Shown here: in pieces, positions 3,268 through 41,744 of the stretch
Layout: every line of letters starts with the position of its first letter
Position numbering within the stretch: position 1 is the first letter of the stretch
From: Escherichia phage HEMP5
DNA length: 64,000 nucleotides
Reading direction: 5' to 3' (one strand)
Sequence record: OR424388.1
Notes under the pieces: generated by a model
What the model saw: the letters and a program-made list of their open reading frames with translations, nothing else
What the model was told of the DNA's origin: nothing
The model's database searches: none
Position numbers and translations under genes: made by a program

Positions 3268-3560
3268 TATTCACCTACCACTTCAGCGATGATATTTTTA
3301 TTATTAAAGTTTTTATCGCAATACAGAACATAATTATACTGCATTACACCACCAGACTTAAGCTGTTTTTGCACTTCAGCTTTCATTTCGGGGCGATCGC
3401 GCTCAACGATATTCATAATATCTGCTTCAATTTGAGTTTCAACCTCAGTCTGATCCGCAGTCATAGACCATTCGCACAAATCTTTATCATAGCCTGCCAT
3501 GGCAGGTTGAGCAGCGCAAGAAGCTAAAGCAAAAATTGCAGCAAAGATAAATTTTTTCAT
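3267..3560 (-). CDS. sp: Spackle periplasmic protein (inhibitor of gp5 tail lysozyme; superinfection exclusion)
   Basis: 97 aa; signal peptide with lipobox-like LASC; GAGG RBS; matches recalled T4 Sp length and sequence. Confidence 0.85.
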   Translation of the reverse strand: MKKFIFAAIFALASCAAQPAMAGYDKDLCEWSMTADQTEVETQIEADIMNIVERDRPEMKAEVQKQLKSGGVMQYNYVLYCDKNFNNKNIIAEVVGE

Positions 3561-3620
3561 GATAATCTCCTCGGTAGTTTATGTTTATATAATATCTCAA
3601 TTTCCAACAAAAGTAAATAG

Positions 3621-3878
3621 TTATTTTAAAACTTCTGCGTAATCACATGTTACAAACTGTTTCTCTAGCTTGACGATTTTACGAAAGTATCTTTTGCATT
3701 GGCGAATCTGCCTCTTCGTAGGACGTACAGCAAACTTAATAAATTCCACTCGACCAAATGGAGGACTTTCTTCTGCTGGAATATCTAACACCAATTCCCA
3801 CGTATCTGCAACAAGTGCTTTGAATTGCGTATTTTTCCTGACATTATACGGAGTAGGTTTAAATAAAACAATATGCAT
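3621..3878 (-). CDS. hypothetical protein (T4 61.4 position)
   Basis: 85 aa; ATG with GAGGA RBS. Confidence 0.7.
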   Translation of the reverse strand: MHIVLFKPTPYNVRKNTQFKALVADTWELVLDIPAEESPPFGRVEFIKFAVRPTKRQIRQCKRYFRKIVKLEKQFVTCDYAEVLK

Positions 3879-3879
3879 A

Positions 3880-4062
3880 TTATCCTCGGCAATCTACTTC
3901 ACATACTTTCTTGTCATCAATGAAAGCTTTAACTAATGCTTTATTAACTTCAGCATACTGAGTAGTAACCCATTGAACATCATCTTTCATCATTGTGGTT
4001 TCTTTAGTAAACATGCTTTCATTCTTAAACCACCCCATAAAAACTACCTTTACCAATTCCAT
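3880..4062 (-). CDS. dmd: Dmd antitoxin (inhibitor of host RnlA/LsoA toxins; T4 61.5)
   Basis: 60 aa MELVKVVFMGWFKNESMFTKE...; GGAG RBS; matches recalled T4 Dmd. Confidence 0.85.
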   Translation of the reverse strand: MELVKVVFMGWFKNESMFTKETTMMKDDVQWVTTQYAEVNKALVKAFIDDKKVCEVDCRG

Positions 4063-34373: not shown

Positions 34374-34901
34374 TTATGCGAGTACCGTCTTTAACCGTTC
34401 TTCAAACTTCCGAAGAGTATTTTGGCGTTCAGCTCTTTGCTTTTTGTAAGTTTCAATACGCTCTGAAATGAGAGTGTATCGTTCATTTACTGATTCTTTC
34501 ATAAAATCAGGAATTTCACGAGAAGCTTTAATCTCGTCAAATTTATCAATAACAGCTTGCTCTTCAGCAATTAAGTTATCATACATTAAAATATCTTTCT
34601 TGATAAACTCAATATCTTCTTGAGTTACACGAGATAATTTAGATGCTTTATCCTTTTTGTACTGTTCGTTAGTATCACGAGACCAGTGTAATGTACGATT
34701 TTTATTCGTATTTTTGTAAATTTCTACAATACCGATCTCATCGATAATAACGATCCAATTCCAACGGGATTTGTAAATTTGTCCTCCATCAACAGTGATT
34801 TCACCTCCGATTGAGATGTCATTAAAGAACTTGCTTTGCGCTTCAGATTTAAATTTACCATCGTTGTAATTTACTAAGTTGAAAATATCTTTAGCGTTCA
34901 T
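34374..34901 (-). CDS. hypothetical protein
   Basis: 175 aa; GGAGG RBS; directly downstream of an early promoter cassette. Confidence 0.7.
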   Translation of the reverse strand: MNAKDIFNLVNYNDGKFKSEAQSKFFNDISIGGEITVDGGQIYKSRWNWIVIIDEIGIVEIYKNTNKNRTLHWSRDTNEQYKKDKASKLSRVTQEDIEFIKKDILMYDNLIAEEQAVIDKFDEIKASREIPDFMKESVNERYTLISERIETYKKQRAERQNTLRKFEERLKTVLA

Positions 34902-36369: not shown

Positions 36370-36399
36370 TAGTACCATAAAGCTTTATGCTTGTAAACA
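36370..36399 (-). promoter_or_regulatory. T4-early-type promoter (repeated promoter-leader cassette copy)
   Basis: -35 GTTTAC, -10 TACTAT; leader nearly identical to the 9781-9830 copy. Confidence 0.55.
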
Positions 36400-36423: not shown

Positions 36424-36447
36424 AAAAAAGGGAGCCCGAAGGCTCCC
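36424..36447 (-). terminator. terminator hairpin GGGAGCC-UUCG-GGCUCCC plus U6
   Basis: 7-bp stem with UUCG loop immediately 3' of the nucleotidyltransferase gene stop; with the adjacent promoter forms a PeSL-like cassette. Confidence 0.6.
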
Positions 36448-36449
36448 TA

Positions 36450-37463
36450 TCATTTATAATAACTTCGGTGGTTTTCAAGATAAACCTGTTCGAGGAAATT
36501 ATTCCAAAAGCTCATATCTACTGTTTTAGGCATACCATTCTTAGAAGCTTCAGTAGATGCTGCTTCTACTTGATCGACCACATCTTCCAAAAACTCTTGA
36601 ACTGTTTTAAATGGATGTTTACCCAACTTCACGTCGAGAATAAATGGAGCATCTTGGAGTGGATAAACCAAGTCACCAGTTTTGTAAATTTCCAATAGTT
36701 GAAGTCCACCACGACAAGCATGACTCAGAGCTTTCCAGTCAATACCTTCATTGGCTTCGGCCTTACGAGCACGTTCACCATATTCAGCATCTAATTTGTT
36801 CAGTGACTGCTTAAGCTCAATAAGAGAAAGCGTTGTCTGATATTTACGACCCAACACTGTGTAGAACGTTTGTGGACCTGTTTTCTCATGATTATGGAAC
36901 ACCCATTCACAGAATTCGTTTTCTGGAAGACGATGCTTAATATCTTCAACTTTAGTGCGACGCTGCTTAATAGAACCATCTTCTTGGTAATCAACCCATT
37001 GCTCAGGGATTTGATTAACTACTTTCAATACATCACGTAATGCAGCCAAACGAGAACCCTTGACACCGTATTTAGAAGCTTGCTTGCGGACATATCCTAA
37101 ATATGATTTCATGTTAGTCGTATAAAAACGAGAACGGTTGTCTTGAATAAACTTCCACACATCAGGCAAATCAGATTTAACCACTAGTTCAGGTGGAGTG
37201 TGAAGCATATCCAACGCTACAGTTTCACCATCTGCCGCTAATTTAAAGAAATACTTAAGACTGTATAGTTCATGGTCAATATCATCTTTAGTGTTTTTAG
37301 ATGATGTGTTGTTAGTGTTTTTACTCATGTGCTCTTTGACATTTCCGATAAGAATATCGCGAGCAGGAGGAACAAAGATTTCTTTAAAATCTACATCAGA
37401 TTCTGGGGTAGAAGTTCCATAAAGATGACTACCAAAATAGCTTTTCATTACTGTTTTCATCAT
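36450..37463 (-). CDS. Pol-beta-superfamily nucleotidyltransferase
   Basis: 337 aa; GS-x9-DxD motif (GSHLYGTSTPESDVDF) and a downstream acidic residue (ALDMLH); ATGA overlap with the upstream gene. Confidence 0.8.
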   Translation of the reverse strand: MMKTVMKSYFGSHLYGTSTPESDVDFKEIFVPPARDILIGNVKEHMSKNTNNTSSKNTKDDIDHELYSLKYFFKLAADGETVALDMLHTPPELVVKSDLPDVWKFIQDNRSRFYTTNMKSYLGYVRKQASKYGVKGSRLAALRDVLKVVNQIPEQWVDYQEDGSIKQRRTKVEDIKHRLPENEFCEWVFHNHEKTGPQTFYTVLGRKYQTTLSLIELKQSLNKLDAEYGERARKAEANEGIDWKALSHACRGGLQLLEIYKTGDLVYPLQDAPFILDVKLGKHPFKTVQEFLEDVVDQVEAASTEASKNGMPKTVDMSFWNNFLEQVYLENHRSYYK

Positions 37464-37921
37464 TCAGCCTTATATTCAATAACAGGACATACTTTAGCTT
37501 TACGCGCTTTTAAAAATTCGACGATAATAGATTTCTTGGGTTGAATAGGAGGTAAACCTTTATACGCCCTATCAATATTTTCTACATGTAAAGCATAATC
37601 CTTTTTCCATTTATAATCTTTATATTTTTCATGCAGTTGTGCAGGAATAACAAATGAACCAATAATAAGTAAAATAAGCAAAATGGCAAGTATAAATGCT
37701 GATGGAATAAGAGTCCATAAACTACCAAAAATAAGCCATTTCTGTATGATTTCTGCACAGATAATAGTTAGACCTGCGAGTATAGTACATCCGAAAAAAG
37801 AAACGAAAAATGTAGGGATAACAATAGACCAAAAGTATGCACACAGTGTCTTAGGTCGTTTCCATTCGTCGTTAAACAGTTTGAATAATTTATAGTGCCA
37901 AGAGTTTTCATTAATAATCAT
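37460..37921 (-). CDS. membrane protein
   Basis: 153 aa; 3-4 predicted transmembrane helices; AGGA RBS. Confidence 0.7.
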   Translation of the reverse strand: MIINENSWHYKLFKLFNDEWKRPKTLCAYFWSIVIPTFFVSFFGCTILAGLTIICAEIIQKWLIFGSLWTLIPSAFILAILLILLIIGSFVIPAQLHEKYKDYKWKKDYALHVENIDRAYKGLPPIQPKKSIIVEFLKARKAKVCPVIEYKAE

Positions 37922-37923
37922 AA

Positions 37924-38445
37924 TTATCCTTTCATTGAAGGTGTAACAGTTGTTAAATACTTAATCATAGCTTCAGCTTCTGATTTTGATAATGAAATTT
38001 CTCCATTGTTTTGACGAATAGAAATAAAATCCGGATGACGGTCACCACCAGCTTTTAAAACACACATATAAGTATCAGTTTCATCTTCAATATCTGAAAT
38101 GATTGAAGCAGTTCCACATGAATGTGGTTTTTGATAAATCAATACAGCTTTTCTTCCACCGTTTGACTGTTCATAAACTTTTAACACATCAAACAAATCG
38201 CTTCTTTTATCAATAGCTAAGATGTTGTTTTCATCTTCAATATTAAATCCTTCGGATACTTCATAAAGTGTCACCCATAAATCACCAATATCAATAACAG
38301 CGTTCACTTTTCCATGACTTTCAAGAGCATTACAAATTTTCTTAATTTCATCATAACTCATTTTAATAATATCATCTCCTTGAATAAGGAAGATGTCATT
38401 TTTAAATTCAACGCGAATTAAACCACTTCCACTTGAAATAAACAT
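37924..38445 (-). CDS. hypothetical protein (tandem paralog 1)
   Basis: 173 aa; C-terminal motif EAEAMIKYLTTVTPSM shared with the next gene. Confidence 0.7.
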   Translation of the reverse strand: MFISSGSGLIRVEFKNDIFLIQGDDIIKMSYDEIKKICNALESHGKVNAVIDIGDLWVTLYEVSEGFNIEDENNILAIDKRSDLFDVLKVYEQSNGGRKAVLIYQKPHSCGTASIISDIEDETDTYMCVLKAGGDRHPDFISIRQNNGEISLSKSEAEAMIKYLTTVTPSMKG

Positions 38446-38451
38446 ATTTCC

Positions 38452-38985
38452 TCACTTTGAAATCATAGTTGGAATGACAGAATCAAGATAAGTCTTTAGC
38501 GCAATAGCTTCGTCTTTGGTAAATGTGACAATATGCGATCGAAAATCATCAATTTGACGAATAGTTAAGACATCTCCATCTTCATAACATTTTGATACGT
38601 TTAAAACAGTTTCATCATTATGATTGCAAGCGTTAGTAATAATAGCATTGCAATTTTTAAACCATTTTAAACTATGTTTTCTTTCATTAGAATAATAAAA
38701 ATATTTAATCTTATCTATAAAACTGTCCCAATGAATAACTGATAGGCATATTGACTCGCTTTCAATATTAAATCCTGGGCATGAAGAATAAAAATGAATT
38801 TTGTGCTCATCATTGATGCTTACTATTTTATCAGTATAAGGATATTCAATTTGGGTTAAATGAATGATTTCACTAGGCGTAAAATATAGCATATCGTCTT
38901 CTTGTGTCAAACGATACATATTATTTACTTTTTCTATAGCTAATTCACCAAAAAGCGGACTAACTTCTAATACTAATCGTTTCAT
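38452..38985 (-). CDS. hypothetical protein (tandem paralog 2)
   Basis: 177 aa from ATG (the six-frame ORF starts at an upstream GTG); C-terminal EAIALKTYLDSVIPTM. Confidence 0.7.
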   Translation of the reverse strand: MKRLVLEVSPLFGELAIEKVNNMYRLTQEDDMLYFTPSEIIHLTQIEYPYTDKIVSINDEHKIHFYSSCPGFNIESESICLSVIHWDSFIDKIKYFYYSNERKHSLKWFKNCNAIITNACNHNDETVLNVSKCYEDGDVLTIRQIDDFRSHIVTFTKDEAIALKTYLDSVIPTMISK

Positions 38986-39149
38986 ATTGATTCTCTTCGA
39001 CTCACCCACAATTACATACTCCTTTGAATAATATCAATAATGTTGTTCACCAGATTATAAGTAAACATTGGATAATTATATTGAATCATCACATACACAA
39101 CAAACAAAACTTTCATTCTCTTCTCCTTGGCAGTTGACAAGATTACTAT

Positions 39150-39350
39150 ATCATAACCTTGCCAACTTGTAAACCATTAAATGACGTTTTCAATAAAATT
39201 CTGAAGCTTTGTGTGAGCATCAACCATGATTTTCATTTCTTCCTTTGCGAAAGCTGTACCTCTTTCCCTAGCAGAATACTCATAGTCAGAAACTGCATTA
39301 GCATATTCTTCAATTAGCTTCATTAAAAACATCTGCTTTTCAGTTTTCAT
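39150..39350 (-). CDS. possible small protein (about 57-66 aa)
   Basis: Hand-translated ORF (MKTEKQMFLMKLIEEYANAVSDYEYS...) filling a 330-bp gap; not in the six-frame track, so my reading may contain an error. Confidence 0.3.
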
Positions 39351-39534
39351 TATTCCACCTAATCATTTCAAGATATTGAACTAACTTAGCTTTGGATTTA
39401 TCCAAATCCTTTTTAGCTGCTTCTATACCATCGTATGAGTATCCTTCACAATGCTCAACTGCTAATTGATATGAATCTATTTCAACATCACGTGCTAATT
39501 TAATAATTTTTTCAAACTGTTCACGTGTTAGCAT
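39340..39534 (-). CDS. hypothetical protein
   Basis: 64 aa; ATG start. Confidence 0.55.
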   Translation of the reverse strand: MLTREQFEKIIKLARDVEIDSYQLAVEHCEGYSYDGIEAAKKDLDKSKAKLVQYLEMIRWNNEN

Positions 39535-39536
39535 AC

Positions 39537-39740
39537 TTAAACTCTCGTATTATGATCGATAATTTCATCAAGAAACATATCTAAAGCTTCTACAGCATTA
39601 TCAACTTTAGCTTCAAATTTTTCAATACCTTTATTTGCAATGCCTGCCGAAAACCAAGCAAAGTCACTAAGTTCCTCATCTGCTTTGCGAATTAAAGCTA
39701 CCAATTCTTTAATTTTATCTGCTTGTTCAATTCTAGCCAT
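39537..39740 (-). CDS. hypothetical protein
   Basis: 67 aa from ATG with GGTGGA RBS (the six-frame ORF starts at an upstream GTG). Confidence 0.55.
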   Translation of the reverse strand: MARIEQADKIKELVALIRKADEELSDFAWFSAGIANKGIEKFEAKVDNAVEALDMFLDEIIDHNTRV

Positions 39741-39996: not shown

Positions 39997-40018
39997 AAAA
40001 AAGTCTCCCGAAGGAGAC
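39997..40018 (-). terminator. terminator hairpin GUCUCC-UUCG-GGAGAC plus U6
   Basis: Immediately 3' of the rI.-1 stop on the minus RNA. Confidence 0.6.
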
Positions 40019-40023
40019 TAATG

Positions 40024-41558: not shown

Positions 41559-41744
41559 TTAAAGCATATTCACATAAGCTATTAATTCGTTTTCTTTCTT
41601 ATCAAACCGATCAGCAAATTCTTCCTGGTGTTCGGGAGATAGCGGGCCGTATTCATCATAAAAGGTGTTTGCTTCTGTATGCTCATCTAGAAGTTCATGG
41701 ATAAGCTCAAACAATTTATCTTTTTGTTCTTTACTCAGACTCAT
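41559..41744 (-). CDS. hypothetical acidic protein (tk.1 position)
   Basis: 61 aa; ATG start. Confidence 0.6.
   Translation of the reverse strand: MSLSKEQKDKLFELIHELLDEHTEANTFYDEYGPLSPEHQEEFADRFDKKENELIAYVNML

Follow-up and report, generated by a model that had tools for sequence, protein, structure and literature searches.

A pair of diverged y05I/MobD.1-family paralogs with a predicted PUR/Whirly-type fold in the early region of Escherichia phage HEMP5

Introduction

Two neighbouring genes of Escherichia phage HEMP5 (sequence record OR424388.1) encode proteins of similar length with related C-terminal ends, and they raise the question of whether such a pair reflects a local duplication and of what its products might do. 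The DNA analysed here, referred to as the window, is the whole stretch of 64,000 nucleotides, in which gene A occupies positions 37924..38445 (minus strand, 173 aa) and gene B positions 38452..38985 (minus strand, 177 aa from its ATG). The genes are adjacent, co-oriented, similar in length and 6 nt apart. An alternative GTG start of B at 39009 would yield 185 aa, and both starts are used in public records. Our reading of both minus-strand ORFs agrees with an initial annotation of the sequence on the position of the pair, on the lengths of 173 and 177 aa and on the C-terminal segments quoted there, which are ...SKSEAEAMIKYLTTVTPSMKG in A and ...TKDEAIALKTYLDSVIPTMISK in B.

Judged by their sequences, A and B are true paralogs of old divergence within the catalogued y05I/MobD.1 family, and both genes are already known through curated Pfam and PHROG families. 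In our best explanation, to which as a whole we assign a probability of about 55%, they are expressed, selectively maintained y05I paralogs acting as dimerising acidic modules with a basic partner; the functional part of this explanation rests on fold and composition. Paralogy, family membership and fold assignment are jointly well supported and very probably correct. The pair is real but ordinary for T4-like phages, whose early regions are hyperplastic, and, as a sequence feature, of little weight, near-identical proteins being found in hundreds of T4-like genomes. Part of its modest interest lies in the predicted three-repeat Pur-alpha architecture and acidic surface of T4 MobD.1 and its sister gene, which offer a cheap and concrete hypothesis of dimerisation and a protein partner.

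Two full-length members of the y05I family

In a single BLASTP comparison (E=7e-10), residues 3-171 of A align with residues 8-174 of B; 26% of the aligned positions are identical and 48% score as positives. Identity rises from 23% in the N-domain to 29% in the C-domain and reaches 38% in the final 22 residues, and at the DNA level the two genes have only short patches of similarity in common. Both proteins score far above the Pfam gathering thresholds of two domains (24.9 bits for PF24449 and 27 bits for PF24448): PF24449 (T4_y05I_N) is matched by A with 119.6 bits (E=1e-34) and by B with 132.7 bits (E=8e-39), and PF24448 (T4_y05I_C) with 82.7 bits (E=2e-23) and 73.8 bits (E=1e-20), respectively. 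In addition, A (E=6.5e-67) and B (E=9.6e-81) match phrog_1502 from end to end of each protein. The remark that no domain could be recognised is therefore out of date, and A and B are both full-length members of the T4_y05I family. Since the BLASTP match is full-length and the Pfam domains and phrog_1502 are shared, the resemblance goes beyond chance; the suspicion that it might be confined to a chance likeness of the C-terminal segments fails on an alignment that is essentially full-length, and the paralogy is further borne out by a common predicted fold.

The N-terminal PF24449 domain comprises aa 1-102 of B (38680..38985, minus strand), where two β4-α units are predicted to form one PUR-like domain, and aa 1-98 of A (38152..38445, minus strand), as delimited by Pfam (residues 2-95) and the model. 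The C-terminal PF24448 domain comprises aa 103-177 of B (38455..38679, minus strand), a predicted β5-α unit delimited by Pfam (residues 105-174), model, conservation and HHalign, with the conserved end helix TKDEAIALKTYLDSVIPTM; in A it comprises aa 99-173 (37927..38151, minus strand; Pfam residues 102-171) and ends in SKSEAEAMIKYLTTVTPSM. The helix TKxEAxALxxYLxxVIPTM of this domain is the most conserved element of y05I proteins, and the shared C-terminal motif that first drew attention to the pair is thus the hallmark of the whole family, not an incidental segment.

With about 85% identity to T4 MobD.1 (UniProt P39240), the type member, and an equivalent position on the mobD.2 to nrdC.11 side, B (bas37_0209 in Bas37) is by these measures the MobD.1 ortholog. 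A, called 'RB32ORF097c' in RB-phage annotations and bas37_0208 in Bas37, is the second, Tequatrovirus-specific y05I paralog; it forms a separate deep-branching subfamily and is lacking from T4. Searches of the literature under 'y05I' and 'mobD.1' yielded no study of function, and the PADLOC defence library gave no match to A, B or the neighbouring membrane protein.

A predicted fold of three PUR-type units

Structure prediction assigns the same fold to A and B. The AlphaFold2 model of A is confident over residues 1-95 (pLDDT about 90) and poor in the C-domain, and a model of B, built on a deeper alignment that included stand-alone C-domains, reaches a mean pLDDT of 88.6. The predicted layout is β4-α-β4-α for the N-domain and β5-α for the C-domain. 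In HHalign comparisons, the N-terminal unit 1 matches the C-domain at E=5.4e-6, against 0.27-0.42 for reversed-sequence controls, and the two align in register from the strand, Q, turn and strand into the beginning of the helix; unit 2 showed no similarity to unit 1 or to the C-domain detectable by HHalign. Taken together, the models and the match between unit 1 and the C-domain point to three PUR-type units in the layout of Pur-alpha. Each protein is accordingly predicted to consist of three β-sheet-plus-helix units, of which units 1 and 2 would form an intramolecular PUR/Whirly-type domain. Unit 3, the C-domain, is to judge from homologous sequences an autonomous module that also occurs as stand-alone proteins of ~70 aa. 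The β-β-β-β-α repeats of the PUR family, two per intramolecular PUR domain, are present in the predicted structures of A and B, as is the Whirly fold.

Sequence-based searches do not extend this likeness. Neither A nor B has a Pfam match to PurA, PUR, Whirly or PC4 even at E<=1, and the family profile found no sequence match among PDB chains at E<=10. A KGKAAL ssDNA-binding motif is a defining feature of the Whirly family, and no KGKAAL-like motif is present in the translations of A and B. Among viral predicted structures (BFVD), Foldseek gave significant scores for y05I members only, with no characterised viral analog.

The top structural neighbours are Pur-alpha, MRP1/2, p24/StWhy2, PC4/Sub1 and the T5 PC4-like protein 4bg7. 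The likeness to Pur-alpha (PDB 3k44, 5fgo and 8chw; Borrelia 3n8b) lies, according to the models, in the domain of repeats I-II and in the layout with a third repeat; y05I proteins differ from it in being acidic, in lacking a conserved basic or aromatic nucleic-acid surface and in their five-stranded C-domain, and sequence similarity is not detectable. The trypanosome MRP1/MRP2 and plant Whirly proteins (p24/PBF-2, StWhy2) are basic tetrameric binders of RNA or ssDNA, whereas A and B lack KGKAAL. There is no sequence relationship to the T5 PC4-like protein (PDB 4bg7), nor to ChmC of chimalliviruses, which binds RNA via Lys/Arg clusters, has a disordered tail and is important for infection, its loss causing a sharp drop in the efficiency of plaquing (PMC11077065); y05I proteins, by contrast, are dispensable, acidic and compact. 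SsgA/SsgB (PDB 3cm1), which are restricted to actinomycetes, are single-domain trimers without sequence similarity to y05I and without an extra C-terminal unit, and neither an SsgA-like profile match nor an actinomycete cell-division context was found for the pair. SsgB illustrates the use of this fold for protein recruitment instead (PMC8061694).

Acidic composition and the probable partner

Thirty of 32 y05I members have a pI of 4.1-5.8 and a net charge of -1 to -22, and the conserved charged positions of the family comprise 14 acidic against 3 basic ones, with Glu/Asp on several β-strands. Acidity extends throughout the family, and Asp and Glu make up nearly all of its conserved charged residues, which suggests a basic partner. 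In the mechanism that we propose, unit 3 would mediate dimerisation in the manner of PUR repeat III, Borrelia Pur-alpha and PC4, so that A and B could each form homodimers or pair with one another. Such dimers would not coat ssDNA or RNA but bind a basic host or phage protein, possibly as a nucleic-acid mimic. As an accessory early factor, they might contribute to host takeover or counter-defence, with a benefit that varies from host to host. If this were true, y05I would represent a new fold class in that repertoire. The specific picture of an accessory early protein that dimerises through its C-terminal unit and either has a basic protein as its partner or acts as a nucleic-acid mimic is tentative, and we would put it at somewhat less than an even chance.

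It weighs against the preferred explanation that binding of single-stranded nucleic acids is common to all the proteins closest in structure (Pur-alpha, MRP1/2, Whirly, PC4 and phage ChmC) and that net charge is a weak predictor. Both points bear on its main rival, which we regard as unlikely and in which A and B would be classical Whirly/PUR regulators that bind ssDNA or RNA, their early targets perhaps being phage or host transcripts or ssDNA, in analogy to ChmC (mRNA) and the T5 PC4-like protein (ssDNA). Such a role agrees with the Pfam label 'putative transcription factor', with top structural neighbours that are without exception binders of single-stranded nucleic acids, with the conserved aromatics F12, Y66 and W108 on or next to strands, and with the adjacent nrdC.11, an RlaP-type nucleotidyltransferase of RNA-repair contexts. 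The composition of the family is at odds with it: binding of purine-rich ssDNA or RNA by A and B is argued against by the acidic pI and the 14 to 3 ratio of conserved positions, both of them sequence proxies, and by the acidic residues on the very strands of the sheet. MRP1/2 reportedly use an electropositive sheet, as described by Schumacher et al. in 2006, and this, too, counts against a classical role, as do the missing PurA, Whirly and PC4 matches. ChmC provides both a phage precedent for RNA binding by a Whirly fold and an argument in the opposite direction, given that mutation of its Lys/Arg clusters abolishes binding (PMC11077065).

A further possibility, which we consider quite improbable, is that y05I is a phage-specific, acidic PUR/Whirly offshoot that has lost nucleic-acid binding and would instead inhibit a basic host protein or serve as its decoy. 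The target could be, for example, a nucleoid-associated protein or a nucleic-acid-sensing component of a defence system, and homo- and heterodimers of A and B, joined by the conserved C-terminal unit, would widen the range of targets. This would account for the presence of two diverged copies in most Tequatrovirus genomes and for the shuffling of alleles and domains described below.

Expression, selection and dispensability

The preferred explanation, in which A and B are expressed and selectively maintained, draws on data from T4 and on comparison of orthologs. T4 MobD.1 (P39240) appears as an early RNA and an early protein in time-resolved omics (PMC9697503 supplements). The dN/dS values of the pair against orthologs are 0.00-0.25, and 0.07-0.20 where at least 14 nucleotide differences are available; examples are A against RB18 (0.08, 19 differences) and B against T4 (0.20). 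By these ratios, A and B are under purifying selection.

Several screens speak to the requirement for these genes. A T4 deletion from nrdC.11 to mobD.3 is viable (PMC9825161), mobD.1 was scored as 'Not Fit' with a value of -0.04 by CRISPRi-ART (PMC11879866), and HIDEN-SEQ assigns T4 mobD.1, bas37_0208 (A) and bas37_0209 (B) to the non-essential genes (10.1101/2025.11.20.689424). By these screens, the genes are dispensable on laboratory hosts. In two HIDEN-SEQ comparisons of Bas37 on clinical isolates, conditional importance was seen for neither A nor B (log2FC from -0.07 to +0.18 at an adjusted p=1; 10.1101/2025.11.20.689424), and these two comparisons thus lend no positive support to a counter-defence role of the pair.

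The genomic context counts in favour of the preferred explanation. According to this preprint from 2025, T4 nrdC.1 is an anti-Septu factor and Bas37_0203, the NrdC.8 ortholog, inhibits Druantia type III (10.1101/2025.11.20.689424). The window carries an NrdC.8 ortholog at 34374-34901 (minus strand, 175 aa) that is 99% identical to Bas37_0203, and with nrdC.1 and NrdC.8 both reported as anti-defence proteins in that source, the dispensable early block carries counter-defence genes. The anti-Druantia gene bas37_0203 was considered as a possible member of the pair and discarded, being the NrdC.8 ortholog, whereas A corresponds to bas37_0208 and B to bas37_0209.

Gene order and a putative early unit

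The pair belongs to an early block encoded entirely on the minus strand, in the order tk, rI.1, rI, rI.-1, mobD.5 to mobD.2, the pair, a membrane protein, nrdC.11 and nrdC.10 onward (gene names follow the RefSeq notes of phage Sf21 and the T4 record). Its position between the small genes on the mobD.2 side and the membrane protein with nrdC.11 is that of y05I genes in the Tevenvirinae early region. The mobD.2 ortholog (39012..39116, minus strand) is a 34-aa ORF without a match in a Pfam search, whose stop codon precedes the alternative GTG start of B by 2 nt, and mobD.2 is annotated at the equivalent position in T4, RB18, BW-1 and Bas36/37. On the other side, a predicted membrane protein of 153 aa (phrog_944; 37460..37921, minus strand) lies 3' of the y05I gene or genes in Tequatrovirus, a membrane protein of similar size being found there in Mosigvirus. 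It is followed by the nrdC.11 ortholog (36450..37463, minus strand), identified as an RlaP-type nucleotidyltransferase by PF10127 (E=3e-11) and by annotations, which would be the last gene of the unit.

A site resembling T4 early promoters lies 5' of mobD.2 (39145..39174, minus strand), where a consensus scan and motif search found GTTTACA, 17 nt and TATAGT with a TG before the -10 hexamer. Directly 3' of nrdC.11 lies a hairpin resembling an intrinsic terminator (36429..36448, minus strand); its 8 bp stem contains 6 GC pairs and is followed by a T run. From this promoter-like site and this terminator-like hairpin, both of them consensus matches, mobD.2, B, A, the membrane-protein gene and nrdC.11 are suggested to form one early unit. 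A motif search in front of A or B found neither a MotA-box middle promoter nor a late promoter (TATAAATA).

The strong terminator-like hairpins at 36429-36448 and 40002-40019 (minus strand) are each followed within ~30-50 nt by an early-promoter-like site of the form GTTTAC...TACTAT, at 36398 and 39986, and the two combinations are possible boundaries of early units, one following nrdC.11 and the other following rI.-1. A larger tandem array of paralogs is present in the same region as A and B: four minus-strand genes (39177-39350, 39340-39534, 39537-39740 and 41559-41744) match DUF7438 with E values of 1e-16 to 1e-18. They are the orthologs of mobD.2a, mobD.3 and mobD.4, which are consecutive and directly 5' of the pair, and the gene immediately 3' of tk.

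Recombination and replacement at the locus

A and B are located in a plastic early unit that has been remodelled by domain-level recombination and by homing-endonuclease replacement. Between the window and T4, homology breaks exactly at 37465-38426, where T4 has the HNH homing-endonuclease gene mobD, which stands in for the membrane-protein gene and A. Right after its mobD.1 stop, T4 carries GAGGAAATATGTTTATTTCAAGTGGAA, which corresponds to the ribosome-binding site, the ATG and the first six codons of A. In the T4 record (NC_000866; L003 6210-6283, the mobD.1-mobD interval), the ribosome-binding site, ATG and MFISSG of A are unchanged and then give way to unrelated sequence leading into mobD, only the first 27 nt of A being retained. 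Since T4 keeps the ribosome-binding site and start codons of A after mobD.1, A was lost there by replacement with the mobD cassette, and the 27-nt stub is the molecular scar of this event. The locus thereby documents the displacement of two accessory T4 genes by a homing-endonuclease cassette, and mobD itself is found at 95% identity or more in only 47 records.

Exchange has also taken place within the pair. Compared with RB18, the window has 95% DNA identity through nrdC.11, the membrane-protein gene, A and ~135 nt at the 3' end of B, where similarity breaks off to resume at mobD.2. RB18-type Tequatrovirus genomes have a mosaic allele of B (L009 2425-3016 against 38588-39010 of the window), in which DNA-level similarity is limited to the final ~45 codons, the N-terminal two-thirds represent a diverged allele and the protein identity is about 48%, and they carry an extra 61-aa ORF between mobD.2 and mobD.1. 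The recombination breakpoint therefore lies inside the gene. In at least three metagenomic samples, a single gene of 179 aa stands in place of the pair, a natural chimera with the 5' part of B and the 3' part of A. Its crossover point coincides with the 10-nt microhomology GATGAAACTG, which occurs only twice in the 64-kb window, at homologous positions of B (38607..38616, minus strand) and A (38076..38085, minus strand). Together, natural chimeras and mosaic alleles show that domains are exchanged within the y05I family.

The chimera-bearing phages (metagenomic contigs L006-L008) have an 88-aa Phage_tudor gene (PF24144; ~3733-3999 in L006) directly 5' of the chimera, at the place of mobD.2 in the window, and a Phage_tudor domain also adjoins the C-domain genes of Gelderlandvirus SEA1. 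A 57% tblastn match in T2 (AP018813) was initially taken for a divergent allele of A and rejected; it is an ordinary A allele with a broken reading frame, N- and C-terminal stretches matching the A of the window closely. In that record (AP018813.1; L005 1940-3481), frameshifts disrupt B, A and the beginning of the membrane-protein gene, which are annotated as fragments. With three adjacent genes broken, indel errors in the record are a more likely cause than true pseudogenes.

Distribution and origin of the second copy

A 2-kb stretch around the pair matched 502 phage records at up to 99.3% identity, nearly all of them Tequatrovirus phages of Escherichia, Shigella or Yersinia. A was found in 433 phage records at 90% identity or more and, by these matches, is kept by most Tequatrovirus genomes; B-type genes were found in 728 records, in allele classes of 85-99%, about 48% and about 33% identity. 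In public records, proteins 99-100% identical to A and B are encoded by hundreds of T4-like genomes. Single copies occur in other genera: Gaprivervirus VR25 and Mosigvirus LF82-9 have one y05I gene, then a gene of ~150-157 aa and then nrdC.11, the intermediate gene being annotated as a membrane protein in LF82-9 and unannotated (150 aa) in VR25.

An exhaustive search of 1.84 billion representative proteins with the y05I profile gave only 30 hits, comprising two-domain forms and many stand-alone C-domain proteins of ~70 aa, all of which end in ...TKxEAxALVxYLNSVIPTMK. The hits that could be placed in sequenced phages were all T4-like (Tevenvirinae where the taxonomy was shown) with hosts among the Enterobacterales, and y05I/MobD.1 is on this evidence a Tevenvirinae-restricted family. 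One hit (P0069, 1572 aa with 8 matched stretches) was judged to be spurious, as a repetitive surface-type protein. In the syntenic region of SEA1, a Salmonella phage (L004), two tandem genes encode C-domains only, at 3501-3737 (78 aa) and 3727-3957 (76 aa), the second of which falls below the Pfam cut-off (E=8e-5); tandem copies of the C-domain module thus appear to have arisen in another genus as well.

The proposal of a local duplication holds in so far as A and B are paralogs, and fails as a recent tandem event. That the pair arose by recent local duplication, with both copies doing the same job as dosage or simple redundancy, is very improbable. Adjacency, common orientation, the 6-nt gap, similar length and identical domains would all be expected of such an event; the natural chimera indicates that halves of A and B can be combined, and the SEA1 genes that duplication recurs in the family. 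Against this stand the protein identity of 26% with essentially no identity at the DNA level and the separate retention of each copy under purifying selection, at 85-100% identity in more than 400 records, as well as the occurrence of B alone in T4 and of one y05I copy in the same slot in Gaprivervirus and Mosigvirus. In a midpoint-rooted neighbour-joining tree, moreover, the A clade falls outside all MobD.1-type sequences, those of other genera included, with the caveat that accelerated evolution of A is an alternative reading of this placement. A has 22-30% identity to every MobD.1-type sequence, and B has 31-51% to MobD.1 orthologs of other genera. As A lies outside the MobD.1-type sequences and has almost no DNA similarity to B, the recent origin is not supported; the second copy may instead stem from an old duplication with fast divergence or from horizontal acquisition of a distant homolog that came to lie beside its relative. 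The notion that A and B are unrelated ORFs with a common short C-terminal segment and AT-rich composition has a negligible probability, its sole support, the low overall identity, being already outweighed by the BLASTP alignment and the Pfam and phrog_1502 matches that refute it.

Labels in public records

In RefSeq and some GenBank records (for example NC_042077, NC_000866 mobD.4 and OR125554), mobD.x genes bear the label 'molybdopterin-guanine dinucleotide biosynthesis protein MobD'. This label is wrong and results from a name collision with the T4 symbol mobD, for mobile endonuclease D. There seems to be just as little foundation for other labels in use here, among them 'helicase loader', 'prohead core scaffold protein' and 'integrase and recombinase'.
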